Assembly: GCA_964625285.1 (NCBI GenBank)
Contig: CAZVBB010000001.1
Span: 1-26,585, forward strand
Source of the DNA: an uncultured bacterium
Lineage (GTDB): Bacteria > NPL-UPA2
DNA: 26,585 bases
Direction of reading: 5' to 3'
Shown: piece after piece, positions 4,464 through 26,585 of the stretch
How positions within the stretch are numbered: the stretch's first letter is position 1
Layout: each line of letters opens with the position of its first letter
Position numbers and translations under genes: made by a program
The notes under the pieces: model-generated
The model's database searches: none
Seen by the model: only the letters and a program-made list of their open reading frames with translations
What the model was told of the DNA's origin: nothing

Positions 4464-4949
4464 TTAAAGAGTTCTCCTATAGCTGGCTCCAATTCTTTCA
4501 AGGAGACTTTGCGTTGAACGCTTATTAACCTCTGAAGCAATCATTACCTCTCCACCGATCTTCTCCATAATCTTTCTTTCTGCTATTTCCTTCCTCCGGT
4601 AATCTCCACCTTTCACTAAAATATGAGGTTCTAACAAGCTAATTAGCTCCTCAGTGGTATCTTCAGGAAATATAATTACATAGTCAACGAAATAAAAAGA
4701 AGAGAGGATTTCTGCTCTCTCTTCCTGAGGGACAACAGGCCTCTTGTTTCCTTTAAGTTTCCTTGTGGAGCTGTCACTATTTACAGCTACAATCAGTATG
4801 TCTCCTTTTCCTTTTGCTTCTCTCAGATAGCGAATATGCCCAATGTGGATAAGATCAAAACATCCATTGGTAAAAACTATTTTTTTTCCGACTTTTTTTT
4901 CATATTTAATAATCCCTGTTAATTCATTTCTGTCAACGACCCTACCCAT
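4464..4949 (-). CDS. rfaE2: D-glycero-beta-D-manno-heptose-1-phosphate adenylyltransferase (RfaE domain II / HldC)
   Basis: FTNGCFDLIHIGH, VAVNSD.S...LKG..RP and LVKGGDY motifs. Confidence 0.93.
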   Translation of the reverse strand: MGRVVDRNELTGIIKYEKKVGKKIVFTNGCFDLIHIGHIRYLREAKGKGDILIVAVNSDSSTRKLKGNKRPVVPQEERAEILSSFYFVDYVIIFPEDTTEELISLLEPHILVKGGDYRRKEIAERKIMEKIGGEVMIASEVNKRSTQSLLERIGASYRRTL

Positions 4950-4951
4950 TT

Positions 4952-5006
4952 AACTCTACCTCTTACTTCTCACTTATAGTTTATAGTTTATAGCGTATAT
5001 AGCTTA
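4952..5006. repeat. Heptamer tract (TTATAGT-like)
   Basis: CTTACTT CTCAC TTATAGT TTATAGT TTATAGC GTATATAGC TTA; overlaps the DUF3108 stop codon. Confidence 0.55.
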
Positions 5007-5777
5007 TGACTTATTACTTACCTCTCTGTTAATCAGCATTATCCACACCAGACCAAGAGCGCCATCCCCTCTGATGAGAAGGGGCAGCCTGTATTTATCA
5101 TCGCTAAACCATATTTGAACCTTGCTTCCTTCCTTAAAAAAGTCTCCTAACCCCACTCCTTCAGGGGTAGACTCAACAACAATTATATTTCTTCTGCGCC
5201 ATTTTCTTCTCTCTAAAGTCTCAAATTTAGCTTCTATGTTATGTTGCCCTGTACTAATATTCACGAAAATTGACTCTCCAACATTAAGTGGCCCTGTCCT
5301 CAGGTAATAAAAGGCGGTAGAGAGTACGTCTCTGGCATCAGGAGCGATAGAAACAGAGCTGAACGTCACATCATTATGAAATCTTTCTGCTACCTCCTGC
5401 TCCCGGTCAAAAATAACGAGCCTGCTTCTTTTCTCATTTCTTATCTCTTCTGTGCTCCTATAAGCAACAGGCAGAAGAGTATTTTTATCAATTAATGATT
5501 CTGATATATTGACCAGCGGGTATAGGAGTGAAATAGGAAAGAAAGTGCGCGAGGTAGTAAGGAGGAAATAGACCTCCTGCTCCTGCCACTTCGTTTTTCC
5601 TGCTTCCATAGTTATGGTCCCCACTGGCACTCCAAAATGAACCCGAAAAGTAAGTTTTTCTCCTACAGGAAATTCCTTCCTCTCCCAGTGCGGTGGTGAG
5701 TAAGCATCATAGGAAAGAGTACCCCCCCCAGAAGCAATGGCAAGGAATACCGCTACTCCAATCATCTTAATTTTCAT
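5004..5777 (-). CDS. DUF3108-like exported protein
   Basis: Signal peptide, GEKL.FRVHFG.PVGT..M, and C-terminal IWFSDDKYRLPLLI typical of DUF3108. Confidence 0.7.
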   Translation of the reverse strand: MKIKMIGVAVFLAIASGGGTLSYDAYSPPHWERKEFPVGEKLTFRVHFGVPVGTITMEAGKTKWQEQEVYFLLTTSRTFFPISLLYPLVNISESLIDKNTLLPVAYRSTEEIRNEKRSRLVIFDREQEVAERFHNDVTFSSVSIAPDARDVLSTAFYYLRTGPLNVGESIFVNISTGQHNIEAKFETLERRKWRRRNIIVVESTPEGVGLGDFFKEGSKVQIWFSDDKYRLPLLIRGDGALGLVWIMLINREVSNKS

Positions 5778-5829
5778 CTAAATCATCCGTATTTTACAAT
5801 CCCTAGTAAAAAGGGATCAAAGTCTCCAA

Positions 5830-5950
5830 TGCACCAGTCCACCGTTCTGGGTTCCGGGTTCACTGTTCTGGGTTCTGGGTTCTGGGTTCTGAACCTTTGA
5901 ACTCCGAACCTCTGAACCCTGAACCCCTAAACCTTTGAACCCTTGAATCC
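5830..5950. repeat. Mirror-image heptamer arms (GGGTTCT)n / (GAACCCT-like)n
   Basis: TTCTGGGTTCCGGGTTC...TTCTGGGTTCTGGGTTCTGGGTTCTG is followed by roughly complementary GAACCTTT/GAACTCC/GAACCCT units. Confidence 0.85.
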
Positions 5951-7042: not shown

Positions 7043-7060
7043 CTCTCCTTTGCTCTTTTA

Positions 7061-7120
7061 CAGGCTGTCACAAAACACGCTCCAGCCTGTAATCAAGGGC
7101 GGCACTTTTGTGACGCCCTA
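7061..7120. mobile_element. 60-bp MITE, copy 1, 7-bp TSD
   Basis: TIRs CAGGCTGTCACAAAA / TTTTGTGACGCCCTA (12/15). Flanked by TCTTTTA at 7054-7060 and 7121-7127. Near-identical copy at 16940-17000. Confidence 0.85.
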
Positions 7121-7603
7121 TCTTTTAGCCTTGAATTTTTTCTTTGAAGTGGGGATAAATTTTCTTTTTAATGTTCCCCCAAACTCCTCTGCCCTTCTAA
7201 TGTCTCCTTCATCAGGTTTTCCTTTGTTAATTCCCCCGATGAGTTTTAATGGTCCATTTGTATCAAATCCTTTACAGAAGAATTCTCCGACAATGTCAAA
7301 TCCCTTTTTTAATAATCTCTTTTTTAGTGACCTGTGCAGGAGCCATTTTACTATTATCCCTGAGGTTGAGAAAATAAATGCTTTTTTGTTCTTTGAGTCA
7401 GGCAATCTATCTACGAGATTTAGGATAGTTCTGTGATGCCTCCAATAATAAATCCCCGAGCCAAAGCCAATCAGATCATATTCCTGAATACTATTCACTT
7501 CCTTTGGCTTTAATAGTTTTGCTCCGAGAGTCCTGGATATTGACACGGCAATCTTTTCGGTGTTGCCATGATGAACCGAAATACATACTACCAATGCTTT
7601 CAT
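7118..7603 (-). CDS. Flavodoxin family protein
   Basis: SVHHGNTEKIA, DLIGFGSGIY, FIFSTSG, GEFFCKGFDT.G and NKG.PDEGD motifs; GGAGG 5 nt before ATG 7603. Confidence 0.85.
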   Translation of the reverse strand: MKALVVCISVHHGNTEKIAVSISRTLGAKLLKPKEVNSIQEYDLIGFGSGIYYWRHHRTILNLVDRLPDSKNKKAFIFSTSGIIVKWLLHRSLKKRLLKKGFDIVGEFFCKGFDTNGPLKLIGGINKGKPDEGDIRRAEEFGGTLKRKFIPTSKKKFKAKR

Positions 7604-7677
7604 TTTCACCTCCAAATTACAAGCTGTCCTCTTTGATCAAAAAAGTCACCGGTGCACCAGTCAATAGGCGGGACATC

Positions 7678-7876
7678 CTTGTCCCGCTCTTTAAAATTAC
7701 AAGCACCAAACCACAAATTACAAACAAGCACCAATGACCAAAATTACAAACAATGGATGAGATTCTTCGGGCTTCGCCCTCAGAATGACAACAAGGTTGT
7801 CAGTTTTGAACATTTGGTGATTTGAATTTGTGATTTGTTTGTGATTTGGAATTTGTATATTGTGATTTTAGCATTG
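7678..7876. repeat. Composite heptamer-arm element, copy 1, with a central GTCATT/AATGAC-family module
   Basis: 7678-7719 is identical (42 bp) to 22034-22075. A/C-rich left arm, T/G-rich right arm. Module 7757-7802 occurs inverted at 22075-22120. Confidence 0.88.
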
Positions 7877-7952
7877 CTCTATGCCCTATGCTCTATGCCC
7901 TCTGCCCCTTGAACCCTTGACCCCTTTCTTATAGAAATTTTTCAAATTCCTG

Positions 7953-8600
7953 CTATAAAATTTTCTCGGCAAGCCCGCGGGCATTCTCCATGCTTATATC
8001 CAGCTCTTCATTGCTTAATCCTGCTCCATAACCTATTTTCTCCATCATTTCAGGAGCTATTAAATCTAATGAAGAATGAGCATCACTACCAATAATAAGC
8101 CCTGTCCTCGCCTCTCTGGTAATTTTTGCAATGTGTCCATTGGTGAGTGAGTGTCCCTTGCGACATGATATTTCCAGAAAAATACCCTTCTCTGCTGCAA
8201 GTCTTGCCTCTTCCAAGCTAATTAATCCGGGATGAGCAAGAATATCTATCTCCGCCTTCAGTGCCATCCTGTTTGTTCCCGAAAGTACTGGTTCAACGAT
8301 CGTCTCGCCATGAACAAGAATCAGCTTTGCTCCTAATTTTCGTGCTCTCTTTGCTGCATCTGCAATTGATTCAGCAGGAATGTAAGTTAACTCTGCTCCG
8401 GGAATTACCTTGATGCGCATAGTTTTATTCAATTCTGCACACACCTTCACAAGTTGAGGAATGACAGTTTCAATATTTGAGATGTCAATGTGGTCAGTGA
8501 TTCCCAGTATTGTATATCCTTTATCTTCAAAACGCCGGGCAAGTTCTGAAGGGGCAAATGCCCCATCGCTCAAAAAAGAATGGCTATGCAAATTAATCAT
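7953..8600 (-). CDS. PHP-domain phosphoesterase (histidinol-phosphatase-like family)
   Basis: NLHSHS..SDG, GITDH, ILAHPG and GSDAH metal-binding motifs. Confidence 0.85.
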   Translation of the reverse strand: MINLHSHSFLSDGAFAPSELARRFEDKGYTILGITDHIDISNIETVIPQLVKVCAELNKTMRIKVIPGAELTYIPAESIADAAKRARKLGAKLILVHGETIVEPVLSGTNRMALKAEIDILAHPGLISLEEARLAAEKGIFLEISCRKGHSLTNGHIAKITREARTGLIIGSDAHSSLDLIAPEMMEKIGYGAGLSNEELDISMENARGLAEKIL

Positions 8601-9448: not shown

Positions 9449-9459
9449 TTTAGTTAATA

Positions 9460-9800
9460 CAATTTTTAAATTTTAAATCCGAAATCCTAAACAAATCCAA
9501 AACCTTAAACTCTAAACAAATCCCAAATTACAAATCCCAAATTACAAACAAGCACCAATGACCAAAAGACTGCTTCGCAGTCATCCTAAGCCCTTCGCTT
9601 CCTGTCATTCTGAGCGAAGCGAAGAATCTCATGGCGCTCAGGGCAGGCTCCGCGAAGGATCTCATAAGATTGCCACACCCTCACTTTGTTCGGGTTCGCA
9701 ATGACAGCTCTGTTGTCATTTTTACTTTGTAATTTTGCATTTTGCATTTTGCATTTTGCATTTTGATTTTTGATTTTCATTTACCCTCTGCCCTTTGCCT
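9460..9800. repeat. Compound repeat: heptamer arms around nested GTCATT...AATGAC palindromes
   Basis: AAATCCC/AAATTAC units, GTCATTCTGAGCGAAGCGAAGAATCTC, AGATTGCCAC...CGCAATGAC, and (ATTTTGC)4 at 9732-9759. Confidence 0.85.
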
Positions 9801-12499
9801 ATCCCTCTTTGCATAGAGGCAACTATTTGCGGCACTTTTAATAGGGCATCGCTAAGTAGGGCAGCATTTTTTCCTCCAGCCTGCGCATACTCAGGGCGCC
9901 CCCCACCACTGCCACCGATAATACTGGCAACTTCTTTAATAATATTACCAGCATGGAATCCTTCCTTAATCAAATTGTCAGTCACCCTTGTTACAAGGAA
10001 AGCCTTCTCTCCAACATTAGACCCCAATACAATGACACCCTTATCAACTTTTTCTCCTAATGTATCTACCATTGAACGGAGCTCTTCAGGAGTAGCTTCT
10101 TTAATTTGCGAAGAGATTATTTTTATGTCATTGATAACCCTCGCCTCTTCTATCAACTTCTCGACTTCTTTTCTCATCTCCTTTTTTCTTGAGAGATTAA
10201 TTTCCTTCTCAAATGCTCTTATCTGCTTCAAGAGACTTTCTACTTTATCCCGAACTTCCATTGATGAACTTTTTAGTATTTGCCCCACTTCTTTCAATAA
10301 TTGCGACTCATCTCTTAACATTTGCCATGCTACTTTTCCGCTTACTGCTTCAATCCTCCTTGTCCCGGCAGCAATGGAGCTTTCGCCAACAATGTGGAAA
10401 ATTCCAATTTCACCTGTTGCTTTAACATGAGTCCCCCCGCATAACTCATAGCTGTAGTCTCCAATCTTCACCACTCGCACACTCTCCTCATATTTTTCTT
10501 CAAAAAGAGCAATTGCTCCCTCTGCTTTTGCATTCTTAAAAGTAGTATAATTAATAGCTATTTTTTTATTCTCTCTTATTTTCTCATTAACCACTTCTTC
10601 AATACAATTAAGCTGTCGTTCATCAATTTTCTTGAAGTGCTTAAAGTCAAATCGTAATCTTTCGGGCGAAACAAAAGAGCCTAACTGAGTAATGTGTTCA
10701 CCCAGTGTCCGCCGCAGGACATTTTGTAGGAGATGAGTAGCTGTATGGTTACAAGCCGCTGCCTGACGCTTTTCGGAATCAACCAGAGCGCTAAATTGCT
10801 CCTGAAGGCCGATTTTTCCCTGAACAACTACTCCTTGATGAATAATAATATCGCCTTCTTCACCATTTACTTTTCTGGTATTCATAACCTCTATTTTTGT
10901 CTCATTTTTACAAAGGATGCCCGTGTCTCCCACCTGCCCGCCACTCTCAGGATAAAATGGAGTTTTGTCCAGAATAATTTCTACTTTATCTCCCTTTGAG
11001 GCAGATGGTGTTAACCTTCCTTCCCTGATGATTGCAAGCACTTTAACATTACATTCTAATGTTTTATAGCCAACAAATTCAGTACTTTTAATAAGCTCTT
11101 CTTCCCCAAGTATCTCGAAAGTAGAGGTAACCTTAGCGGAATCTGATACAAGAGCAGTTTCACTGCCGTAAAAATGAGCAACCTTAGATTCTCTATCAAG
11201 GCGAGCCTGCTCCTGCTGCTTTCGCACTTGCTCGTTGAATTTATCACGATTTATCGTAAAGCCATTTTCTCTAGCTATCTCGGAAGTTAAATCTATTGGG
11301 AAACCATAAGTATCATGCATCTTAAATGCTATTTCCGCTGGGATTTCATTTTTTTTGCTTCTTTTTGATTCCTCAATCACTTTGATAAGAATTTCCATTC
11401 CTTGCTCAAGCGTGCGTAGGAACCTCTCTTCTTCACTGAAAACGACCTGGGTAATGTACTCTCTGCGAGAAGTGAGCTCCGGATACACGTTTTTCATCAA
11501 ATTAGCAACTGTAACAACGGAGGTATAAAGAAAAGGTTCGTCAAGAGAAAGCATCTTTTTACCGAGCAATAAATGAGCCTGACGCACTGCCCTGCGAATC
11601 AGTCGGCGCAATACATAGCCTCTCCCCTCATTTGCCGGTGAAACTCCATCACTAATCAAAAACGTTGCTGCTCGCAAGTGGTCTGCCATTATCCATAGAG
11701 CAGATTCCTCTGCTTTACTACTTACCTTTAGGGTCTCAGCAATAGAGCTAAGAACGGGACTGATAAGACTGCACTCAAAAATCACTTCACTTCTTTCCAC
11801 TAAAAAGAGTGCTCTTTCCAGTCCCATGCCAGTATCAATGTTCTTCTGGGGCAGAGGGGTTAGATTTCCATTAGAGGTGCGGTTAAACTGAGTAAAAACG
11901 AGATTCCAGAGTTCAAGAAAGCGATCGCAGCCGCAGCTGGGACTGCAACTTTTTTGCCCGCATCCTTTCTCTTTCCCGCGGTCAAAAATAATTTCTGAGC
12001 ATGGCCCGCAAGGACCTGTGGGTCCCATGTTCCAAAAGTTGCTTTCTTCTCCGAGACGGACAATCTTTGTCTCAGGAATACCAATCTTTTTCCAGATGTG
12101 ATATGCCTCATTATCATCTCTAAAAATACTGACCCAGAGTTTCCTCTCGGGCAACTTCAGAACTGAGGTAACAAATTCCCATGCCCAGGTAATAGCGTCA
12201 TTCTTAAAATAATCGCCAAATGAGAAGTTACCGAGCATCTCAAGAAAAGTAAGATGACGCGCTGTATAGCCAACATTTTCAATGTCAGTGGTGCGAAAAC
12301 ACTTCTGGCAGCTCACCACACGAGAAATATCGCTCTTCTTACTGCCTAAGAAGAAATGTTTAAACTGATTCATCCCTGCCCCCGTAAAAAGCAGAGAAGG
12401 GTCATCTTCAGGAATAAGCGATGAACTTGCTACTATCCGATGTCCACGCTCAGCAAAAAAATCAAGAAAACTTTTCCGTAACTCATCAGCATTCATCAA
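9722..12499 (-). CDS. alaS: Alanyl-tRNA synthetase
   Basis: LLFTGAGMNQFK, TFLEMLGNFSFGDYFK, DTGMGLER, HTATHLL, CGGTH and GGSGGGRP.AQAGG motifs; repeat-derived C-terminal tail. Confidence 0.98.
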   Translation of the reverse strand: MMNADELRKSFLDFFAERGHRIVASSSLIPEDDPSLLFTGAGMNQFKHFFLGSKKSDISRVVSCQKCFRTTDIENVGYTARHLTFLEMLGNFSFGDYFKNDAITWAWEFVTSVLKLPERKLWVSIFRDDNEAYHIWKKIGIPETKIVRLGEESNFWNMGPTGPCGPCSEIIFDRGKEKGCGQKSCSPSCGCDRFLELWNLVFTQFNRTSNGNLTPLPQKNIDTGMGLERALFLVERSEVIFECSLISPVLSSIAETLKVSSKAEESALWIMADHLRAATFLISDGVSPANEGRGYVLRRLIRRAVRQAHLLLGKKMLSLDEPFLYTSVVTVANLMKNVYPELTSRREYITQVVFSEEERFLRTLEQGMEILIKVIEESKRSKKNEIPAEIAFKMHDTYGFPIDLTSEIARENGFTINRDKFNEQVRKQQEQARLDRESKVAHFYGSETALVSDSAKVTSTFEILGEEELIKSTEFVGYKTLECNVKVLAIIREGRLTPSASKGDKVEIILDKTPFYPESGGQVGDTGILCKNETKIEVMNTRKVNGEEGDIIIHQGVVVQGKIGLQEQFSALVDSEKRQAAACNHTATHLLQNVLRRTLGEHITQLGSFVSPERLRFDFKHFKKIDERQLNCIEEVVNEKIRENKKIAINYTTFKNAKAEGAIALFEEKYEESVRVVKIGDYSYELCGGTHVKATGEIGIFHIVGESSIAAGTRRIEAVSGKVAWQMLRDESQLLKEVGQILKSSSMEVRDKVESLLKQIRAFEKEINLSRKKEMRKEVEKLIEEARVINDIKIISSQIKEATPEELRSMVDTLGEKVDKGVIVLGSNVGEKAFLVTRVTDNLIKEGFHAGNIIKEVASIIGGSGGGRPEYAQAGGKNAALLSDALLKVPQIVASMQRGIGKGQRVNENQKSKCKMQNAKCKITK

Positions 12500-12540
12500 A
12501 ATATCCCCTCGCTAATTTCGAAATTCAAGTACCTTTAAAT

Positions 12541-12606
12541 GAGATTTCTGAAAAAGTCAGAAATCTCTGAAATCAGAGGTCTCTGAGTATTTTTTCGGAA
12601 ACCTCT
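12541..12606. repeat. Double-hairpin repeat family, copy 3, in the probable alaS leader
   Basis: GAGATTTCTGAAAAAGTCAGAAATCTC-TGAAATC-AGAGGTCTCTGAGTATTTTTTCGGAAACCTCT. Confidence 0.85.
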
Positions 12607-12617
12607 TAGATAGGAGT

Positions 12618-16912: not shown

Positions 16913-16939
16913 CTTAATTCTCCTATCTTTTATTAGCTA

Positions 16940-17000
16940 CAGGCTGTCACAAAACACGTTCCAGCCTTGTGATCAAGGGCGGCACTTTTGTGACGCCCTA
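16940..17000. mobile_element. 61-bp MITE, copy 2, 11-bp TSD
   Basis: Same sequence as 7061-7120 except for a few substitutions and a 1-nt indel. TTTATTAGCTA at 16929-16939 and 17001-17011. Confidence 0.85.
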
Positions 17001-17628: not shown

Positions 17629-17690
17629 CAATATCAAAAAGGTTCAAAGACACAAGTTATATCTATTAAACTGGTGCCTCATTTTCAATC

Positions 17691-17771
17691 GAGCCCCTTG
17701 CAAAAATCCCGAAAATATCACTTTGTTCGGAATGACAAAAAGGGGAATTCTCATACTTTTGCAAGAGCCTC
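17691..17771. mobile_element. 81-bp MITE related to the GGCTGTCACAAAA family
   Basis: GAGCCCCTTGCAAAA / TTTTGCAAGAGCCTC inverted ends; AATC on both sides (17687-17690, 17772-17775). Confidence 0.7.
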
Positions 17772-17792
17772 AATCTATATTTTTTAGCATGT

Positions 17793-17975
17793 AGAGATTT
17801 CCGAAAAAGTCCGAAATCTCTGAAATCGGTGTAATCTGACCCGAAGGGTCATTCCGAGCGAAGCGAGGAATCTCAATGAGATTGCTTCGGCAAGTTCCCT
17901 CGCTGTCGCTCGGGACAAGCCTCGCAACGACGTCGGTGTAATCAGAGGTATCTGAATATTTTTTTCAGAGACCTC
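17793..17975. repeat. Double-hairpin repeat family, copy 4, interrupted by a GTCATT...AACGAC palindrome
   Basis: Hairpin A 17793-17821, insert 17837-17932 flanked by TCGGTGTAATC (17826-17836, 17933-17943), hairpin B 17944-17975. Confidence 0.85.
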
Positions 17976-18480
17976 ATGTAAGAGTTCTTTTTATCAGCTT
18001 TAGTGCTGCCTCAGAGGCACGTAATTTTATTGTGTTTCGTTCTCCTGTAAAGTGATGTTCTTCGCAGATGACCCTGTTGCCATCAGCAAGCCCCAGATAA
18101 ACAAGTCCAACAGGTTTTTCTGTCGTTCCTCCTCCTGGACCAGCAATCCCGGTTATAGCAATGCCAATGTCAACAGAGCTTGATTTTCTTACTCCATCTG
18201 CCATTGCCTCTGCTACTTGAGGGCTGACGGCGCCAAACTTTTTAATCATTTCCGGAGGGACTCTCAGGAGTCTAATCTTTGCTTCATTACTATAAGCAAT
18301 AATTCCCTCATGGAAATAACATGAGCTTCCGGGTACATCCGTTAACTTGCTGGAGACAATGCCCCCGGTACAGGACTCAGCAACAGCTATTGTTTTATTC
18401 TTTGAAATCAAAAGGTCGGCGACGGTTCTCTCGAGAGACTCCCTGCCCACCTCATGAGGGCAATTCCCTTTTGAGTTCAT
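17974..18480 (-). CDS. cinA: CinA C-terminal domain / NMN amidohydrolase PncC
   Basis: AVAESCTGG, PGSS.YF, GAVS..VAEAMA and TGIAGPGGGT.EKPVGLV motifs; no N-terminal MoCF-like domain. Confidence 0.88.
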   Translation of the reverse strand: MNSKGNCPHEVGRESLERTVADLLISKNKTIAVAESCTGGIVSSKLTDVPGSSCYFHEGIIAYSNEAKIRLLRVPPEMIKKFGAVSPQVAEAMADGVRKSSSVDIGIAITGIAGPGGGTTEKPVGLVYLGLADGNRVICEEHHFTGERNTIKLRASEAALKLIKRTLT

Positions 18481-18493
18481 ATTAGTATGCTTC

Positions 18494-18657
18494 CAAGAAA
18501 ATTCGTCGCTTCGCTCCTCATTTCCTTCCCTAAGGGGCTCCGCCCCTCGGGCGTCCGCCTGAGGCGGACTGTCACCCCATGAGGGAAACCAGATTGTTTC
18601 CCTATAAACTTCTCCTAATCCGCATAGGAAAGGTTTTATACTTTCCTATGCTACAAG
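18494..18657. repeat. 164-bp multi-hairpin repeat, copy 1
   Basis: Direct repeat of 19422-19565 with an extra 20-bp hairpin segment at 18533-18552. Confidence 0.92.
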
Positions 18658-18662
18658 GGACT

Positions 18663-18923
18663 TTATTTTTTGAAGACAACATCATTGCCTCGCACTCTCT
18701 CATTAACTTTGATACCTACGGCGTCTCCTTTCTTTCCTTCAGAGATAGAATCGTGCTCTATCTGCATGGAAGCGACATCCTGCTCAAAATCCGTTGTATG
18801 TCCCTTGATATGAATTTTGTCTCCAATTTTGAGTGGAGCAGTCAGCTTAATAACTGCAACCCCTACCTTATCAAAGTAGTGAGTAATCCTTCCAATCTCC
18901 TCCTCATTTCTTTCCTCTGTCAT
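18663..18923 (-). CDS. Small EF-Tu domain II / peptidase U32 C-terminal-like beta-barrel protein
   Basis: IGRITHYFDKVGVAVIKL...LKIGDKIHIKG.TTDFEQ.V.SMQIEH..I..GKKGD.VGIKV; 86 aa with a Shine-Dalgarno-like GGAGGTG upstream. Confidence 0.75.
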   Translation of the reverse strand: MTEERNEEEIGRITHYFDKVGVAVIKLTAPLKIGDKIHIKGHTTDFEQDVASMQIEHDSISEGKKGDAVGIKVNERVRGNDVVFKK

Positions 18924-18978
18924 CTTATTTTCACCTCCCCGATTAATAAATAATCTATAGTTGAGAGCCCAGAGTCGT

Positions 18979-19419
18979 CTACTTTTCCCACGTATTTCCT
19001 AAGTATTTTGCTTCTCCACAAAACTGATTTTGATAAGCCTTTTTTATATCTTCTTCTATATCAGGACGAAAGTCTATTTCTGAAAGAGAATTAAGGTCAA
19101 TCCTTTCTACACCTTCAAGGATTTCCTCACTACCTAATTTTAGCTCACCGCCCAATATTTTTCCAGTGAAATAAAGGTCAATTGTATGGCGGTGCCCATC
19201 CGGAGGAATGGTATCCCCGATAAATACAAGTTTTCCTAATTCTATCCTGAGATTTATCTCTTCTTCTATCTCCCTTATTGCCGTTTCTTTTAGCGTCTCT
19301 CCATATTCTACTGTACCGCCTGGAAGAACCCAATAACTATGCCCTCTTTTACGATGTTTAACAAGATACAGCCTTCCATCTTCAATTAGAATAAGAGATA
19401 CTCTTATTTTGGGATACAT
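18979..19419 (-). CDS. NUDIX hydrolase
   Basis: WVLPGGTVEYGETLKETAIREIEEEINL Nudix box. Start placed at ATG 19419 because the upstream ATG lies inside the repeat. Confidence 0.88.
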   Translation of the reverse strand: MYPKIRVSLILIEDGRLYLVKHRKRGHSYWVLPGGTVEYGETLKETAIREIEEEINLRIELGKLVFIGDTIPPDGHRHTIDLYFTGKILGGELKLGSEEILEGVERIDLNSLSEIDFRPDIEEDIKKAYQNQFCGEAKYLGNTWEK

Positions 19420-19421
19420 CT

Positions 19422-19565
19422 CAAGAAAATTCGTCGCTTTGCTCCTCATTTCCTTCCCTAATCCGCCTCAGGCGGACTGTCACCCCATGAGGGAAACCAG
19501 ATTGTTTCCCTATAAACTTCTCCTAATCCGCATAGGAAAGATTCTATACTTTCCTATGCTACAAG
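19422..19565. repeat. 144-bp multi-hairpin repeat, copy 2
   Basis: Near-identical to 18494-18657 apart from the 20-bp segment. Confidence 0.92.
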
Positions 19566-19577
19566 CTATGCCTCATT

Positions 19578-20699
19578 TCATTCGGCAACCTGCATAGGAT
19601 TGAAATTCCTACTCTTTAAGTTATCTTCCATTTTGTTCATTAATTCATTTAGTCCTATTTTTTTCAGGGCAGAAATTGGAATACCATCAGGAAATTCATT
19701 CTGGATTTGGTGTCTCTCAACAGCACCCGGGACGAGGTCTATTTTATTAAGAGCAGTGATAATCGGGATTTCTCCTGCTCCAATTTCATTGAGAACGTTC
19801 AGGACAATCTTATTTTGCTCTTCTCGCATAGGATGGCTTGCATCTAAAACATTAATAAGGATATTTGCTTCAGCAACCTCTTCAAGAGTTGCCTTAAAAG
19901 CAGCAATAAGGTTATGCGGAAGTTCTCTGATAAAGCCAACCGTATCTGTTATAAGAATTTCCCTGCCAGAAGAAAAAAATACCTTCCTCGTCGTGGGATC
20001 GAGCGTTGAGAAAAGCTTATCCTCAACTGCTACGTTAGAATGACCCAGTGTGTTCAGGAGAGTTGACTTTCCAGAGTTCGTGTATCCAACGAGCGAGGCA
20101 ACTTGAAAAGAATGACTCTTTCTTCCTTTTCGCAACAATGTTCGATGTTTTTTTACTTTTTCTATTTGCTCTTCAATTTTCCCGATACGGAGACGAATTG
20201 CCCTGCGGTCAATCTCCAGTTGAGGCTCACCATGCCCTCTTCCACCTAAGACTCCCCTAACTTGCGAAAGTCCAACCCCCTTCCCTGTAAGTCGGGAAAG
20301 AAAATGCTTCAGTTGCGCTAACTCCACCTGTAGCTTCCCTTCTTGTGACCGCGCCCTCTGTGAGAAGATGTCAAGTATAAGTTGAGTTCGATCAATTATT
20401 CTTGCATTAATAATTCTTTCCAGGTTACGTTGCTGAGTAGGGCTAAGTTCATTGTCAAAAATCACCAGGTTACATCCTGCTTCGCTAATTGCCCTTTCTA
20501 TTTCTTCTGCCTGACCTTGACCAATGAAAGTTGCTGGATTTACCCTTGTTTGTCGGAGTGTAGTGACAAAGCCAATTTTAGCTCCGAGGGTCTCTGCGAG
20601 TAGCTTCAATTCAGCAATGGCATTCTCCAACCCCCAGCGACGGGGGCCTGGCTTAATCAAGACAAGCGCAGCCTTCTCCTTATCCCGTGTAGAAAACAT
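19578..20699 (-). CDS. hflX: Ribosome-splitting GTPase HflX
   Basis: LILDIF.QRA.S.EGKLQVELAQL, GYTNSGKS, DTVGFI and NKID motifs; AAGGAGGT upstream of ATG 20699. Confidence 0.95.
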   Translation of the reverse strand: MFSTRDKEKAALVLIKPGPRRWGLENAIAELKLLAETLGAKIGFVTTLRQTRVNPATFIGQGQAEEIERAISEAGCNLVIFDNELSPTQQRNLERIINARIIDRTQLILDIFSQRARSQEGKLQVELAQLKHFLSRLTGKGVGLSQVRGVLGGRGHGEPQLEIDRRAIRLRIGKIEEQIEKVKKHRTLLRKGRKSHSFQVASLVGYTNSGKSTLLNTLGHSNVAVEDKLFSTLDPTTRKVFFSSGREILITDTVGFIRELPHNLIAAFKATLEEVAEANILINVLDASHPMREEQNKIVLNVLNEIGAGEIPIITALNKIDLVPGAVERHQIQNEFPDGIPISALKKIGLNELMNKMEDNLKSRNFNPMQVAE

Positions 20700-20725
20700 T
20701 GTTTTAATAATTACCTCCTTGAGGT

Positions 20726-21637
20726 TCAACCTCGTAAGACTGGTGTTATCCACTTTAAAATTAGTTCTTCGCTTCTGCCTTTATCAGCGTCAATCCAGTG
20801 AATACGGCTTTCCTTGCGAAACCATGTAAGCTGTCTTTTAGCATATCTTCTGGTATTGCGTTTTGTGAGCCTTTTTGCCTCTTCTAAATCATAATTACCC
20901 TTGAGATAACCGCAGACTTCTTTATATCCGAGCCCCTGCATAGATGGGAGATGTTCTCCATATCCTTTATTTAGTAAGTTCTCCGTTTCAGCAATAAGGC
21001 CAGCGTTAAACATTCTCTCAACTCTATCTTCAATCCTATTATAGAGATTCTGAATGGTTCTCATTAACCCGATTATAACAAGATTTAGTTCACTGTCTTT
21101 TCCAACAGATTGAAAAGATGAAAATGGTTTTCCAGTGATCTTATAAACTTCAATAGCCCTGATTATTCTTATAACATCATTGGGATGGATTTTTGTAGCC
21201 GCAGGCGGATCAAGAGCTTGCAGGCACTTGTGAAGACGTGCTGACCCAAACTGCTTTATTTCTTCTTCCAATTCTTTCCTTATCTTCGGGTTCTCTCCAC
21301 AGTCAACATCAAGTCCGTTTGTCAAGGCTCTTAGGTAAAGTCCACAGCCGCCAACTAATATTGGAACTTTCCCCTTTTTTTCTATTTTCTTGATCGCTCT
21401 CCGTGCATCCCGGCAAAACTGCCCGGCACTGTATTTTTCATTCGGAAAAATAATGTCAATGAGGTGGTAAGGCACTTTTTCCTGCTCCGCCTTCGTTGGT
21501 TTTGCCGTTCCAATATCCATATATTTAAAGACTTTCCTTGAGTCAACGGAGATAATTTCTCCTCCTATCTCATGAGCTAATTTTGAGGCAGTCCCTACCT
21601 TTCCGACCGCCGTAGCGCCACAAATAGCAAGAATCAT
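20726..21637 (-). CDS. miaA: tRNA dimethylallyltransferase
   Basis: ISVDS, MDIGTAKP, PYHLIDI, ILVGGCGLY, GLGYKE and YAKRQLTWF motifs; variant P-loop GATAVGKV. Confidence 0.95.
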   Translation of the reverse strand: MILAICGATAVGKVGTASKLAHEIGGEIISVDSRKVFKYMDIGTAKPTKAEQEKVPYHLIDIIFPNEKYSAGQFCRDARRAIKKIEKKGKVPILVGGCGLYLRALTNGLDVDCGENPKIRKELEEEIKQFGSARLHKCLQALDPPAATKIHPNDVIRIIRAIEVYKITGKPFSSFQSVGKDSELNLVIIGLMRTIQNLYNRIEDRVERMFNAGLIAETENLLNKGYGEHLPSMQGLGYKEVCGYLKGNYDLEEAKRLTKRNTRRYAKRQLTWFRKESRIHWIDADKGRSEELILKWITPVLRG

Positions 21638-21644
21638 TATTTGT

Positions 21645-21968
21645 TCACTCCCGCATTACCTCCGTTACCCATTTAAGATAGCTTGAGTTGACATCTTCTA
21701 CTTTCAGCAGCACTATCTCCGGAACCTCATAAGGATGGATTTCTTCTAATCTTTTAAATGTCGAGCTTAGAAGCTTATCCGTTGTTTTCAAAAAAAGTAT
21801 GCACTCATCGTCTGTCTGGATTTTCCCTTTCCAGAAATACTTGCTTTTTACTGAACCAACCCTGTTCACACAGGCAACGAGCTTTTCTTCAAGCAATAGA
21901 TTTGTAATCTCTTCTGCCTTGTCTTCAGGACAAGTAGTCATAATCAGCTTCAATTTTCCCTCTGCCAT
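21645..21968 (-). CDS. cutA: Divalent-cation tolerance protein CutA
   Basis: LLEEKLVACVN, S.YFWKGKI and HPYEVPEI motifs. Confidence 0.93.
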   Translation of the reverse strand: MAEGKLKLIMTTCPEDKAEEITNLLLEEKLVACVNRVGSVKSKYFWKGKIQTDDECILFLKTTDKLLSSTFKRLEEIHPYEVPEIVLLKVEDVNSSYLKWVTEVMRE

Positions 21969-21999
21969 GACACCCCTCTTCTTTTATCAAGCTATCTCT

Positions 22000-22024
22000 G
22001 TCGGGGTAAACTCTGCCCGACTAC
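22000..22024 (-). repeat. Single GTAG-type REP
   Basis: Minus strand GTAG-TCGGGCAGAGTTTACCCCGAC, an imperfect palindrome. Confidence 0.5.
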
Positions 22025-22033
22025 CATCAAATT

Positions 22034-22300
22034 CTTGTCCCGCTCTTTAAAATTACAAGCACCAAACCACAAATTGACAACCTTGTTGTCATTCTGAGGG
22101 CAAAGCCCGAAGAATCTCATGTCATTACTACTAACAGTGAGATTCCTCGCTCCGCTCGGAATGACTTGCAGAGCAAGTCAGTTTTGAACATTTGGTAATT
22201 TGAATTTGTTTGTGATTTGACACAAAGTGTCTCACTTAATTTAAGGTTACAGAAAATTATAGCCGTGATGGGAATTTGTATATTGTGATTTTAACATTGC
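22034..22300. repeat. Composite heptamer-arm element, copy 2
   Basis: Shares the 42-bp left end, TCAGTTTTGAACATTTGGT and GGAATTTGTATATTGTGATTTTA with 7678-7876. Confidence 0.88.
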
Positions 22301-22331
22301 ATTTTACCCTCTGCTCTCTACTCTCTACTCT

Positions 22332-23810
22332 CTACTCTCTGCTCTCTGCTTTTCCTTCCAGCGCCCATTGACAAGCCCCAGTAATGGTAACCGACACTAA
22401 ATCTCCAATTATACCTTTTTCTCCTTCGAAAACAACAACTTTATTTGTCCTTGTCCTACCTAATAATTTGAAAGGAGCTTTTTTCTTTGTTTCCCCAGCC
22501 AGCACCTCAACTCTTCTGCCAATCAGGTTTTCATTTCTCCTAACACTTATTTCCCCCTGAACCTCCTGGAGCCTCTTAAGCCTGTCCTTCTTTACGTTTT
22601 CAGGGACTTCATTCTTCATCTTTGCTGCCTCAGTTCCTGGACGAATAGAATATTTATACATAAATGCGTTGTCAAATTCAACCTTTCTTACTATATCAAG
22701 TGTATCTTCAAATTCCTTCTCGCTTTCCCCGGGAAAGCCAACAATAAGGTCTGTCGTTATTGATAATCCTGGAATGGTTTCTCTTGCCTTTGAAATAAGG
22801 TTTAGATAAAAATCTCTCGTGTATCCCCTGTTCATCAGTGCAAGGATTCTATTTGAGCCGGACTGCAGTGGAAGGTGAAGATGCTCGCAGACCTTTGGTA
22901 AGTCAGAAACCGCCTTCAGTAAGCGCGGAGTTACCCCTGATGGATGAGAAGTAATAAAGCGGATGCGTTTCACTCCATCAATACCGTTAATCTCTTCAAG
23001 CAAATCTGCAAGGTCAATATTTTTCCATCCATTGGTCGTTTTCAATCTGGATTTATATGAAGTAATATCCTGCCCAAGAAGCAAAAATTCCACAAAACCC
23101 TGTTCTGTTAGATGGACTATTTCATCAACAATTTCTTCAAGTCCCCTACTCTTCTCCTTTCCTCTCAGATATGGAACCACGCAATATGAGCAGAATTTAC
23201 TACATCCTCTCATAACTGCTAACGATGTGCTAATCTTTCCATCTTTTATGATTGGAAGATTAGTAAACCCCGTTAGAAAGGATGGGGCTTTGAACCCCAC
23301 CCTTTCTTGAAATAAGGATGGCAATTTATATTCATCCCCACCCCCAGGGGTGGGGCTTTCTAACGGGGTAAATGGCAGTTTGTCACTTTCTCCAATATCA
23401 ACAATTCCCTTTGTTGCTTTCGCCTCATTCAAGAGCTCCCCTATTCGGTGGAAACTATGTGTCCCGCAAACCAGACTCACGGAAGGAAAGCGACGAATAA
23501 TTTTTGCCCCTTCTTTCTGAGCCATACATCCACACACCCCGATAGTTAATGGCTTACTCTCTCTAATCTTTGATAATCGCCCCAGTTCACTCCACACCTT
23601 ATTTTCAGCGTGCTCTCTTACGCTACAAGTATTAAGTAAAACCACATCAGCCCTTGAGGCATCATCTATAAGACCATATCCATCGCCGGTTAAAATACCC
23701 GCCATAATCTTTGAATCATACTCATTCATCTGACAGCCGAATGTCTTAATATAAACCGAGGGCTTTCTTTGGGCGAAAGTCTTCATAGGTTTACGGTTGT
23801 TTTTAGGCAT
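22332..23810 (-). CDS. miaB: tRNA-2-methylthio-N6-dimethylallyladenosine synthase MiaB, with a 35-aa MITE-derived insertion
   Basis: TFGCQMNEYDS, LNTCSVRE.AE, GCSKFCSYC (CX3CX2C), HLPLQSGS, TDLIVGFPGE and TRAM domain. Confidence 0.96.
   Translation of the reverse strand: MPKNNRKPMKTFAQRKPSVYIKTFGCQMNEYDSKIMAGILTGDGYGLIDDASRADVVLLNTCSVREHAENKVWSELGRLSKIRESKPLTIGVCGCMAQKEGAKIIRRFPSVSLVCGTHSFHRIGELLNEAKATKGIVDIGESDKLPFTPLESPTPGGGDEYKLPSLFQERVGFKAPSFLTGFTNLPIIKDGKISTSLAVMRGCSKFCSYCVVPYLRGKEKSRGLEEIVDEIVHLTEQGFVEFLLLGQDITSYKSRLKTTNGWKNIDLADLLEEINGIDGVKRIRFITSHPSGVTPRLLKAVSDLPKVCEHLHLPLQSGSNRILALMNRGYTRDFYLNLISKARETIPGLSITTDLIVGFPGESEKEFEDTLDIVRKVEFDNAFMYKYSIRPGTEAAKMKNEVPENVKKDRLKRLQEVQGEISVRRNENLIGRRVEVLAGETKKKAPFKLLGRTRTNKVVVFEGEKGIIGDLVSVTITGACQWALEGKAESRE
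23268..23368. mobile_element. 101-bp MITE inserted in frame in miaB
   Basis: TIR CCCCGTTAGAAAG / CTTTCTAACGGGG; TAAA at 23264-23267 and 23369-23372; 101+4 = 105 bp = 35 codons. Confidence 0.92.
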
Positions 23811-24204
23811 TTAATTCCTCATCAGGAAACATCATTTTAACAAACTTTTCTGCTTCTTCTATGTCTTTCTCAAGGGTTTTCCGCTTAGGAATCGAAGAAA
23901 TAGGTAACGGATAGCGCTCTATTAGATAATAAGATGATATCCGTTTACAAATCTCTCTAAATGACTCCAGGGAAGGTTTATATTTGACAGCGTCATCTAA
24001 AAGAGCGTCAAGGTCATGTATCTTTTTTAGGGCCCACCCCGATTGCAATAAGAAAGCCTTTATATACTTTTCCAGTGCTTGTTGCAGGAAAAAAGCAGTA
24101 GCTTCCATATCATTTTCTTTGAGCATTATGAAAATACGACGCCAATCCTTTCTCGCATATTTTAGCCAATCTGGTGGGTACAATGAGTTTTTTGCCTCTT
24201 TCAT
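23803..24204 (-). CDS. HEPN-domain protein (QQA.EK..KA / K.HDL / RYP subtype)
   Basis: QQALEKYIKA, KKIHDL and YY..ERYP motifs; coupled to the MNT gene. Confidence 0.88.
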   Translation of the reverse strand: MKEAKNSLYPPDWLKYARKDWRRIFIMLKENDMEATAFFLQQALEKYIKAFLLQSGWALKKIHDLDALLDDAVKYKPSLESFREICKRISSYYLIERYPLPISSIPKRKTLEKDIEEAEKFVKMMFPDEELNA

Positions 24205-24518
24205 AGTTCTACTCCTGTTTTTAAAATCTCTTCAATGAATTGATCGCCTATTCTTATTTTTTCTTCCAACTCAGATTGATTGAGCACTATGGGGAAAAAG
24301 GGTAGTCCATAACGAAGGTTATGAGCAATTGTTTTGACTCTTGCCATTCTCTCAAAGAAATCTTCAGTGGTTGGTGCGATCACCAATAAATCCACGTCAC
24401 TATCTTCCCCTGCCTCACCTCTTGCATAAGAGCCGTAGAGGATGACCTTTTCGGCACGATATTCTTTCTTTAACCGTTCGCTTATCCTTCGCAGTCGTTC
24501 AGAAATTTCCTGGTTCAT
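24201..24518 (-). CDS. Minimal nucleotidyltransferase (MNT)
   Basis: VILYGSYARG....DSDVDLLVI (GSX10DXD); 105 aa. Confidence 0.92.
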   Translation of the reverse strand: MNQEISERLRRISERLKKEYRAEKVILYGSYARGEAGEDSDVDLLVIAPTTEDFFERMARVKTIAHNLRYGLPFFPIVLNQSELEEKIRIGDQFIEEILKTGVEL

Positions 24519-24596
24519 AACACCACCTTCCTAATTGGCCGTAATACCGAAGATGTCACGCATAGCGTGAGACTTTTATGTAAATTGTGGTTTTCA

Positions 24597-25052
24597 TCAT
24601 TTTAATTTGGATTTTTGCAATGAATTGAGTAAGCTCTTCATCCGTTCTAAGAATTTTAATGAGTATCTTATGGCTTTCTTTGCTTCTTCGTCAGTGGAGA
24701 AAAAACTTAAATCATATTGATCAACATGCCTTATTTCTCTATGATAGTCAAGTAATTCAATCCATTTTTTCTCAAGTTTATTTGTTTTAACATATTTTTC
24801 TTCCAGATAGCGCGCTACGCATGCGTGGCTTTTCTCTCGATAGCCATCATAGAAAAGGATTGCCCGTGCGGAGTGGAACATTACCATATAAGACGCGAGA
24901 ACTGAAGAATCAAACGCCTTACCATTGAGTGTCTTATGGGATTCATCTAACCATTTTTCTGCCTTGTTAATAGACTGCATAGCTTTATCGTGTGAAGCGG
25001 GAACCTTTCTCAACAACCCTTTTTCTATGCAATCTTTATATCTGAATGCCAT
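24597..25052 (-). CDS. HEPN-domain protein (UPF0332-like subtype)
   Basis: SY.VMFHSARAIL..DG..EKSH and REIRH..QY motifs. Confidence 0.85.
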   Translation of the reverse strand: MAFRYKDCIEKGLLRKVPASHDKAMQSINKAEKWLDESHKTLNGKAFDSSVLASYMVMFHSARAILFYDGYREKSHACVARYLEEKYVKTNKLEKKWIELLDYHREIRHVDQYDLSFFSTDEEAKKAIRYSLKFLERMKSLLNSLQKSKLK

Positions 25053-25584
25053 CTTTTACTCCATATAGAACTATAGAACCAAACACAAGCGAATGATAAA
25101 ATAATGGGTCATCTTTTTTTGTCTTCTCTATTTTTTTATCAGTTAAAAATAAAGGCTTGATATTTTTAATCTCTTTGTGCAGCTTAGATGTTAGAGAGGC
25201 TAATTTTTCTTCGCTTACATCACTAACTTTTATCCATAAATCAATGTCTGAATCTTCAGTATTTTCTCCTTTTACACAACTTCCATATAATCCTACCGCC
25301 TGAATAAAAGAAAACCCTTTGAAGATGTTGAGGTTGGTGTTTTTTATGTTAAGTAAAATCTTGATTCCCTTGACCAAAGAAGAATCAGTTATAACAACTT
25401 TTCCTTTTGCTCTTCTTTTAAGGATGCTCATTTTTGTTAGGATATCAAAATATTTAGAAACAAGCCCCTTACTCAATCTTAATTGATTAGCAATATTATT
25501 AACGCTAATATTGCCGGTTTTAAAAACAATCGCCTGTAAAATTTTTATTCTCTCTTTAGTGGAAAATATTTTTTCCATGTTCAT
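25036..25584 (-). CDS. Winged-HTH + minimal nucleotidyltransferase
   Basis: N-terminal SVNNIANQLRLSKGLVSKYF HTH; LYGSCVKGENTEDSDIDLWI. Confidence 0.88.
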   Translation of the reverse strand: MNMEKIFSTKERIKILQAIVFKTGNISVNNIANQLRLSKGLVSKYFDILTKMSILKRRAKGKVVITDSSLVKGIKILLNIKNTNLNIFKGFSFIQAVGLYGSCVKGENTEDSDIDLWIKVSDVSEEKLASLTSKLHKEIKNIKPLFLTDKKIEKTKKDDPLFYHSLVFGSIVLYGVKDGIQI

Positions 25585-25849: not shown

Positions 25850-26585
25850 TTAATCCTTCATTTCCCAATGCCCACCAAAATCCGGTCCAATACGCCTGAT
25901 ATATCCAGCATCTTTTAATTTCGTAAAATGCTTTTGGATTGCAGAAGTGTTAATACCGATTACCTCTGCTAATTCTTTTCTCGATATTTTAGGATTCGCT
26001 TTTATTGCCCCAAGTATTCTTTTTTGTTTATCATTCAGAATAATTTTCTTCTGACCCGACCTCTGACCACCTGTCTGACCACCTGTCTGACCACCACCCA
26101 AACCTTCGCCTTCTTCCCACTTAGGTCGATAAAAGACCACCGCAAAACCAGTCTTGAGCCGATTAAACTCAACTCGAACACCTACAGCAACACACTCATC
26201 ATGAATGCGCTTAATGCCGCTTCCCCAGCGCTCAATATCTTTAGATTTATACACTGTCTCTGCAATTAAGGGATTCCGTAAAATCGAGTGTTCATGCCCG
26301 GAGAAGAAATCCTCAGGATTAATCTCTGAGGGGAAAAGGCCTGGGTTATAAATCTCAATTCGATCCTTAAAAATTGCCACCTCATTGCCTTTGGGATTTT
26401 CGAAATCACGATGGCAGAGTGAATTTCCAATAGCTTCAGAAATAGCCCTGACCGGGACCTCAGGTATCTCTTTACGACGACTCTCGCTTAAATCGGCCCG
26501 CCACTTCATATTACCATTAACATAAACTTTCTGCCAACCATTTGTCCGACAACCGTTCCATCATCCTTAATACCAAAATACAATT
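25850..26585 (-). pseudogene. AlbA_2(Schlafen-like)/HATPase_c_4/wHTH ('RecG-like') regulator, apparently internally deleted and frameshifted; runs off the window
   Basis: ORF 25850-26509 has EAIGNSLCHRD, IEIYNPG, RNPLIA, E.WGSG and a C-terminal HTH. A different frame at 26583-26530 reads LYFGIKDDGTVVGQ (AlbA_2-like) and stops at the ORF start. Confidence 0.6.
26051..26098. repeat. 12-bp coding tandem repeat (GGQT)n
   Basis: CTGACC recurs at 26051, 26063, 26075 and 26087, encoding GGQTGGQTGGQRSGQK in the linker before the HTH. Confidence 0.8.

Follow-up and report, generated by a model that had tools for sequence, protein, structure and literature searches.

BOX elements of Streptococcus pneumoniae, which are confined to streptococci, are built from boxA, boxB and boxC modules and measure about 100–200 nt. 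Insertion sequences of the IS91 family target 5'-CTTG (CTTG/GTTC), produce no target duplication and carry subterminal palindromes (PMC13181058). Likenesses to both are found in an intergenic multi-hairpin element that occurs twice in a stretch of 26,585 nt from an uncultured bacterium of the NPL-UPA2 lineage (contig CAZVBB010000001.1), referred to here in its full length as the window. The two copies, copy 1 (18494–18657, 164 nt) and copy 2 (19422–19565, 144 nt), both on the minus strand, are in the reading that we favour and consider reasonably probable sisters of a non-autonomous, directional and modular multi-hairpin repeat of about 145–165 nt, one of several families that fill intergenic gaps in this lineage. 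The closest named relative of the organism is Unc8, a metagenome-assembled genome (MAG) of about 1 Mb from serpentinised groundwater (PMC6305446). A literature search on the motif sequences and on repeats in NPL-UPA2 returned nothing relevant.

Empty sites in related lineages

Both copies are read in the sense of the surrounding genes, which are all on the minus strand in the order miaA (20726–21637), hflX (19578–20753), copy 2, a NUDIX hydrolase gene (18979–19419, or to 19449 if an ATG inside the terminal hairpin of the element is used), a gene for an 86-aa 'translation elongation factor-like' barrel protein (18663–18923), copy 1, cinA (17974–18480), thpR/LigT and recA. Copy 1 separates the stop of the 86-aa gene from the start of cinA, and copy 2 separates hflX from NUDIX. 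The next ATG is 13 nt away from copy 1 (cinA, 18480) and 2 nt away from copy 2 (NUDIX, 19419), which corrects the 14 and 3 nt given in a first-pass annotation of the window. The same two copies are present in four JGI metagenome contigs essentially identical to the window, one of which stops inside copy 1.

The locus was compared in five lineages (P0002–P0006) whose 86-aa protein is 80–87% identical to that of the window; the protein of candidate division NPL-UPA2 bacterium Unc8, annotated as 'translation elongation factor-like protein', is 87% identical, and most of the distant homologues carry the Pfam EF-Tu domain 2. The Unc8 contig NDHY01000009 shares 86–90% nucleotide identity with the window and has the same gene order. 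The bracketed two-gene block (18663–19419, minus strand) has the same order in all relatives and, as judged from this synteny, its genes are native to the operon and not cargo.

No module of the element was detected in the loci of the relatives. The distance from the 86-aa gene to cinA is 9–24 nt in all five lineages, except that the locus L036, from another NPL-UPA2 lineage, carries a different, unrelated insert of 222 nt at this junction (4650–4872), just after the shared ...GCATGCTAAT. In 4/4 lineages with a readable hflX end, a count that leaves out the short P0002 contig, the end of hflX shares 16 nt with NUDIX (ATGTATCCCAAAATAA or a sequence close to it). In the groundwater metagenome run X3, a 15-kb contig about 89–92% identical to the window skips exactly 18495–18653 and 19420–19624, and metatranscriptome contigs from the same sample (X5) show the identical two skips. 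The ancestral operon miaB-cutA-miaA-hflX-NUDIX-86aa-cinA-thpR-recA is thus compact and, since the hflX/NUDIX overlap is common to near and more distant relatives, the parsimonious reading is that the elements were inserted in the lineage of the window and are not ancestral leaders.

At site 1, the empty state in Unc8 reads ...TAAAGTCTCTTG | AGGAAGCATGCTAATATG, and the filled state in the window reads ...TAAAGTCCCTTG, followed by the insert TAGCATAGG...TTTTCTTG and then by GAAGCATACTAATATG. A single CTTG stands exactly at the empty junction (CTCTTG|AGGAAGCAT), compared to CCCTTG[...CTTG]GAAGCAT in the filled site. At site 2, 205 nt take the place of about 10–12 nt and consist of the 144-nt element and a lineage-specific segment of 59 nt (19566–19624, minus strand), which lies directly 5' of copy 2 in gene sense and ends in CATAG before the CTTG of copy 2. 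This segment gives hflX a new C-terminus, DNLKSRNFNPMQVAE, in its last 15 codons (19578–19624, stop at 19578–19580), in place of the 8 codons (AAIECIPK) that overlap NUDIX in the relatives. The possibility that the segment is itself a collapsed copy of the element was rejected, as its alignment score (25.5) lay inside the range of shuffled sequences (23.0 ± 4.2). Apart from CTTG, no duplicated target was found at the two sites, and the repeat search of the window listed no terminal inverted repeats linking the ends of the element, only hairpin arms.

Module structure and covariation

A repeat search of the window and a pairwise alignment confirmed the same-orientation pair described in the first-pass annotation. 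The copies are direct repeats that match in a block of 104 nt at 97% identity (18554–18657 and 19462–19565) and in a second one of 40 nt at 98% (18494–18533 and 19422–19461), with start-to-start spacings of 908 and 928, respectively. They differ by exactly four substitutions and by one 20-nt segment confined to copy 1. The three hairpins quoted in the annotation are present in both copies, and its description of conserved stems and varying loops also holds, as predicted loops contain 4/4 of the substitutions.

In gene sense, copy 1 is organised as CTTG-TA-H1-linker1-H2-linker2-H3-H3b-H4-CTTG, and the internal order of modules is identical in all copies found here and elsewhere, the unit being a directional string H1-H2-H3-(H3b)-H4. 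H1 (18622–18651 in copy 1 and 19530–19559 in copy 2, on the minus strand as all other modules) is GCATAGGAAAG-N8-CTTTCCTATGC and starts 2 nt past the 5' CTTG; compensated variants of its stem occur in the homologous copies L047 (GTATAGGAAT/ATTCCTATGC) and L051 (GTATAG/CTATAC). Linker 1 (18604–18621; 19512–19529) reads GGATTAGGAGAAGTTTAT, and the GGATTAGG within it is invariant across all copies. H2, the core hairpin (18582–18603; 19490–19511), is AGGGAAAC-AATCTG-GTTTCCCT and is followed by linker 2, CATGGGGTGACAG (18569–18581; 19477–19489), which hardly varies between copies and, of all segments, is repeated most often in the source metagenome.

H3 is TCCGCC-TCA-GGCGGA in copy 1 (18554–18568) and has the loop TGA in copy 2 (19462–19476), a single change of the middle loop base and not the switch to a reverse complement that the annotation had taken it for. 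It is swapped for unrelated hairpins in L027, in L051 and in many metagenome contigs. H3b (18534–18553, CGCCCGA-GGGGC-GGA-GCCCC) is found in the window in copy 1 only and, as it is present in the homologous copies L017, L023, L027, L047 and L051, that is, in every homologue except copy 2, it is ancestral and was lost from copy 2. The extra 20-bp hairpin reported for copy 1 is therefore real, but it is not an addition. The terminal hairpin H4 (18494–18533; 19422–19461) reads TTAGGGAAGGAAATGAGGAGCGAAGCGACGAATTTTCTTG; it consists of GGAAGGAAAT...ATTTTCTT and a final G, in such a way that AAG pairs with CTT at its base and its end is CTTG, and it contains an ATG. At least three versions of H4 exist, with alternatives in L047 and L027, and all of them keep the AAG/CTT stem base and the terminal CTTG.

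On this sequence comparison, the flanking hairpins H1, H3 and H4 are exchangeable modules, arranged around a family core composed of GGATTAGG, H2 with the loop AATCTG, and CATGGGGTGACAG. Over five distinct sequences, GGATTAGG, the loop AATCTG and the ...GGGGT(G/A)ACAG of linker 2 are invariant or nearly so. The stem of H2 appears as AGGGAAAC/GTTTCCCT, GGGGGAAAG/CTTTCCCCC, GGGGGAAAT/ATTTCCCCC, AGGGGGCAT/ATGCCCCT and, in the core-only copy L052, AGAGAAAC/GTTTCTCT. Among these five sequences 5/9 pairs have changed on both sides, with 97.8% of cells paired; the covariation score was reached by 0/500 shuffles and collapsed in slid registers. An extra compensatory change (A18582G with T18603C) was detected in runs X12 and X23. 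As the retrieval patterns left out H2, its covariation is not an effect of ascertainment. On paper, GGAUU could form a pseudoknot with the AAUCU in the loop of H2, but its five pairs are all invariant and thus uninformative, and full pairing of a 6-nt loop is sterically unlikely.

Folding is far better than that of shuffled sequences on both strands, with z-scores of -5.3 and -4.7 in gene sense and -4.9 in antisense. The sense strand folds 12–18 kcal/mol better than the antisense strand in 7/7 copies, an asymmetry that is largely compositional and not decisive, since the z-scores of both strands are similar. Within the window, the H1 and H2 patterns matched nowhere but in these two places, with 0.00 and 0.12 matches expected from shuffles. 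The search against Rfam 15, also suggested in the annotation, yielded just two tRNAs above the gathering thresholds in the window, with nothing credible on the element at E up to 10 nor on four other copies at E up to 1. No terminator-like site (a G+C-rich stem followed by a U run) was found in 18300–19800, and a promoter/terminator scan detected no signature inside the elements.

The ATG of H4 was found in suggestive frames. Version 1 of this hairpin contains GGAAGGAAATG. In copy 2 its ATG (19447–19449) is in frame with NUDIX, 10 codons upstream, and leads gene callers to a 156-aa protein; in copy 1 the ATG (18519–18521) opens a frame of 14 codons whose TGA overlaps the ATG of cinA (ATGA); and in L051 (about 1300–1345) the frame stops 2 nt ahead of the in-frame GTG of a sigma factor gene. 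The rough joint chance of such framing in the two window copies is a few percent. H4 may serve translational re-coupling, which might explain how insertions are tolerated in tight junctions, although this is suggestive only.

Copies 1 and 2 are each other's closest relatives. Because they alone share the rare version of H1 and the private linker 1 GGATTAGGAGAAGTTTAT, it is likely that they derive from each other by a local copying event.

Distribution and copy number

Further copies were found by several routes. A protein-database search with spurious open reading frames (ORFs) translated from the element returned two proteins only, which led to L047 and L051. L047 carries a third copy in the same organism, after efp, and this site is also empty in three related lineages, with a gap of 57–81 nt vs. 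a composite insert of 726 nt in L047. This insert (L047 2620–3347) contains, together with the element, a called ORF of 125 aa (P0121), whose N-terminus is element sequence and whose C-terminus resembles a membrane peptide, followed by further repeat modules, and its end, GGATAGCTTG, falls exactly at the point from which the sequence is again homologous to that of the relatives. The L051 copy, from another metagenome, lies upstream of a gene for an extracytoplasmic function (ECF) sigma factor.

Two full-length homologues (L017 and L023), 77% identical over 160 nt, were detected by scanning one genome per species with the H1 pattern. They are located on two contigs of a Syntrophomonadaceae-labelled MAG, one of them 51 nt after a GH4 gene and the other after another gene. 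A scan of metagenome contigs revealed the variant L027/L028, a single locus present in two samples, in which H1 contains the TAG stop of tsaE. Finally, a covariance model of the core detected L052 (42.5 bits, E = 1e-7), a core-only copy in the 5' untranslated region of a small gene in an Unc8-like genome. Every sequenced copy is intergenic, and the 6/6 copies with readable context are co-oriented with the adjacent gene; the neighbours differ (hflX/NUDIX, elongation factor-like/cinA, efp, GH4/fucosidase, tsaE and ECF sigma). The core and full-length variants are contained in hot-spring, subsurface, groundwater and hydrothermal-vent metagenomes, and many metagenomes from sediment and groundwater contain 31-letter words sampled from unspecified parts of the element. 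No match to the element was found in a scan of viral contigs, in a plasmid collection or in a phage collection.

Most of the matches of the H1 scan in genomes were rejected as unrelated palindromes of Lachnospiraceae and Clostridia, L017 and L023 being the only true homologues. The rejected loci (L005, L007–L010, L012, L014, L016, L020 and L025) contain multi-copy palindromes of the form TTTTTATT-GCATAGGAAAG-N8-10-CTTTCCTATGC-AATAAAAA, which share the H1 stem, resemble bidirectional terminators or a REP-like family, and probably have no common descent with the element. In addition, a Planctomycetia MAG (L019, 3505–3535) has H1 with the same loop type (TATAAAATA) beside other long hairpins and without the core, suggesting that H1 circulates as an independent module.

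The copy number of the family was estimated from summed contig depth in the source runs X1 and X2. Depth reached 4500–5280 over linker 2 and H2, compared to 25–46 in the flanks, and only 135–420 over the window's version of H1, which is a rare one at only about 3–4 times the single-copy depth, and 260–650 over its version of H4. The core is thus over-represented more than 100-fold relative to single-copy flanks, which corresponds to roughly 100 copies or more for each genome-equivalent of the source metagenome and agrees with the three copies in the approximately 35 kb of the organism covered by the window and L047. The dispersed copies and the depth of the core contradict the notion, raised in the annotation as a refutation, that only two copies exist.

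Other repeats and features of the window

The element is not the only insert in this locus. At seven junctions shared with Unc8, the intergenic spaces measure 63–394 nt in the window vs. 2–21 nt in Unc8. Four of them (7609–7954, 9454–9805, 17634–17975 and 21956–22351) are filled with 340–394 nt of hairpin mosaics and short tandem repeats, compared to 5–21 nt in Unc8, and miaB and cutA even overlap in Unc8. A 63-nt two-hairpin element, TAGGGCGTCACAAAAGTGCCGCCC...CAGGCTGGAACGTGTTTTGTGACAGCCTGTA, lies between thpR and recA (16938–17000), with a second copy at about 7059–7129. The perfect 9-bp direct repeat GCTAATAAA, present once at the empty site in Unc8, stands on both sides of this element, which has imperfect inverted termini around GTCACAAAA. 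By these sequence hallmarks it is a classical insertion of a miniature inverted-repeat transposable element (MITE), so that true MITEs coexist with the multi-hairpin element in this genome. As the repeat inserts at the seven junctions include this one with its target duplication, the comparison with the streamlined relative points to a lineage-wide invasion of intergenic space.

Two further hairpin families recur in the window. The first, GTCATTC(C/T)GAG(C/G)G(A/C)AGC..GA(G/A)GAATCTCA, is found at 17848–17878, 22135–22165, 7757–7806, 22071–22120 and about 9560–9640, and in L047 at about 3150–3200; the interior of H4 (GAGGAGCGAAGCGACGAAT) resembles the loop of this family. The second, AGAGATTTC(C/T)GA-N5-TC(A/G)GAAATCTCT followed by CAGAGGTCTCTGA.TATTTTTT, occurs at 1056–1117, 2559–2668, 12534–12608, 17787–17839 and 17937–17964, and is also high-copy, with a depth of 810–1064 over 17900–17970 in runs X1 and X2. 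The motif ATAGCTTG was considered as a strand-specific terminal signature and discarded, as it occurs twice on each strand of the window and is just a recurrent feature at several insert ends. Short tandem repeats in the intergenic inserts (22271–22350, 5800–5950, 9700–9770 and 26050–26095) consist of the 7-mers AGTAGAG/AGCAGAG, GGTTCAG-type and CAAAATG and of a 12-mer.

The sole trace of a transposase in the window is a truncated DDE transposase of the IS1595 family (ISXO2-like; 59–511, minus strand), with a match to only the C-terminal half of the domain. Two adjacent pairs of HEPN and MNT-type nucleotidyltransferase genes (23803–25584, minus strand) look like toxin-antitoxin modules, and Unc8 has a related HEPN/MNT pair at a different position in the locus.

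Taken with the empty sites of its relatives, the window offers a clean before-and-after view of small structured repeats invading a streamlined genome. Such repeats also have practical consequences, as they break assemblies, with contigs ending inside them, and make gene callers extend ORFs into the repeats.

Discussion

The above results argue for a structured non-autonomous element, one of the two explanations offered in the first-pass annotation, as five sister lineages have empty sites, the copies of the family are numerous and dispersed, and the H2 stem covaries around a fixed loop. A mode of insertion may be sketched from the ends. The 3' end is CTTG in 7/7 sequenced copies, the 5' flank is CTTG in 3/7 (copy 1, copy 2 and L027), and subterminal hairpins are found at both ends, with H1 following the 5' CTTG and the 3' arm of H4 running into the terminal CTTG. 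Insertion would be a cut-and-join or copy-in event at CTTG, leaving CTTG on both sides and no longer duplication. It would require an enzyme acting in trans and encoded elsewhere, which would most likely be a single-strand HUH-type transposase, of the kind of IS91, IS200/IS605 or the REP-associated tyrosine transposases (RAYT) of repetitive extragenic palindromic (REP) sequences, recognising the hairpins. Hairpins near both ends, the lack of inverted termini and of a longer duplication, and the gene-sense orientation of the six readable copies are properties of single-strand (HUH) transposition. This HUH-like, CTTG-directed mechanism, drawn by analogy, is a possibility that we put forward tentatively. 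The inserted copies would persist by read-through of the polycistronic mRNA, with no terminator to stop it and with an ATG supplied by H4, an account of persistence that we regard as conjectural.

Several observations weigh against the favoured reading and its mechanism. No HUH-type transposase was found in the approximately 35 kb read of the organism, the empty state of site 2 has no CTTG, site 1 departs from a clean insertion by 2 nt (AG), and the exact 5' CTTG is absent in 4/7 copies. Moreover, the centre of the element, not its ends, is the most conserved and most repeated part, which is the reverse of the usual pattern of transposon-derived repeats and fits a functional RNA or a protein-binding core. 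Finally, the covariation analysis is based on only five distinct sequences, and other community members may contribute to the metagenomic depth from which the copy number was calculated.

The main rival is that the element, or at least its core (GGAUUAGG, H2 and CAUGGGGUGACAG), is mainly a functional RNA module in mRNAs, kept by selection, with its spread being secondary; such a module might act in processing, in stability or in protein binding, or as a portable cassette for translation re-initiation. In line with this are the covarying H2 stem with its invariant loop and linkers, the shared orientation of all readable copies with the neighbouring gene, the better fold of the sense strand, the core-only copy in a 5' untranslated region of an Unc8-like genome (L052), the framing of the H4 ATG in copy 2, copy 1 and L051, and the higher conservation at the centre than at the ends. 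However, the same operon exists without the element in five sister lineages, meaning that these genes do not need it; the copies have unrelated neighbours and vary in position (3' of genes, and 5' of one); neither an Rfam match nor a terminator or promoter signature was detected; the similar z-scores of the strands leave the energy asymmetry largely compositional; and more than 100 copies with exchangeable modules are typical of selfish repeats. On balance this explanation is unlikely, although it and the HUH-like reading are not mutually exclusive. These same arguments (orthologous operons without the element, unrelated neighbours and no Rfam, terminator or promoter signal) count against taking the repeated cis-regulatory leader of the annotation as the primary explanation, and no conserved gene or pathway association was found among the neighbours of the copies.

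Mobilisation by a RAYT, as a repeat of the REP type or of its composite form, the bacterial interspersed mosaic element (BIME), was considered in view of the extragenic, high-copy hairpin units and of a GTAG that abuts H1 in both window copies, a cue to HUH/REP mobilisation according to the annotation. However, GTAG is restricted to these two sisters, the same position reading GAAG in L027, L023 and L047 and AAAG or TAAG in L017 and L051. In addition, the unit is a directional string of four to five different hairpins instead of a palindrome of 20–40 nt or an inverted doublet, and no RAYT was found in the sequence available, including Pfam scans of the window ORFs, so that this origin is very unlikely. 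A still more remote explanation is recombination between the two copies, by which the NUDIX and barrel genes would be excised, circularised or amplified; their excision or amplification had also been suggested in the annotation. Direct repeats of 104 nt at 97% identity and 908 bp apart would lend themselves to it; against it, contigs of the two source runs showed no 908/928-bp skip, deletion or circle joint, although rare variants could escape contigs, an apparent back-joint of 187 nt is most likely an artefact of a reference cut between the copies, and both genes are native operon members in all relatives. The weakest alternative, that one intergenic segment was simply duplicated locally and has no wider family, accounts for the 97% identity and for the rare H1 and private linker 1 common to these mutually closest copies, but can be dismissed given the homologous copies elsewhere in the same and other organisms, the more than 100-fold over-representation of the core and the empty state of both sites in relatives.

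A bolder and rather doubtful extension is that the core (GGAUUAGG, the covarying hairpin with the loop AAUCUG, and CAUGGGGUGACAG) might be the recognition module of an undescribed mobilisation system, or else a functional RNA that subsurface and serpentinite-associated bacteria of several phyla have in common. On that view, its exchangeable flanking hairpins and the CTTG joint would let the core colonise even overlapping junctions of streamlined genomes of about 1 Mb.

Comparison with known repeat classes

Like the REP/BIME sequences of enterobacteria and pseudomonads, including REPINs, the element is a short, high-copy, hairpin-forming extragenic repeat that builds module mosaics inside operons, is transcribed with the neighbour genes and would depend on an enzyme encoded elsewhere. 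Unlike them, it has no inverted-doublet organisation and consists of an array of four to five different hairpins around a conserved central one. With BOX elements it shares, by description only, modules that can be absent, present or exchanged, a predicted stable RNA fold and an unknown mobilisation mechanism, whereas its family spans several uncultured subsurface lineages.

The resemblance to derivatives of IS91 and IS200/IS605 lies in the lack of terminal inverted repeats and the subterminal hairpins at both ends, and possibly in a lack of target duplication and in a strand- and orientation-specific insertion beside a tetranucleotide; the element differs in that site 2 and several 5' flanks depart from the CTTG rule and in that the centre is best conserved. 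Like MITEs, it is a small, non-autonomous intergenic repeat whose presence varies between close relatives, but it lacks terminal inverted repeats, and any duplication is limited to CTTG.

The combination of a covarying central hairpin with an invariant loop and its recurrence in unrelated groundwater, hot-spring, vent and sediment organisms makes the element a tractable candidate through which to find a novel mobilising enzyme, or else a novel RNA or protein-binding module. It is best classed as a new family of intergenic repeats that are short, structured and non-autonomous; this family belongs to none of the classes tested and resembles REP/BIME sequences, BOX elements and HUH-derived elements.

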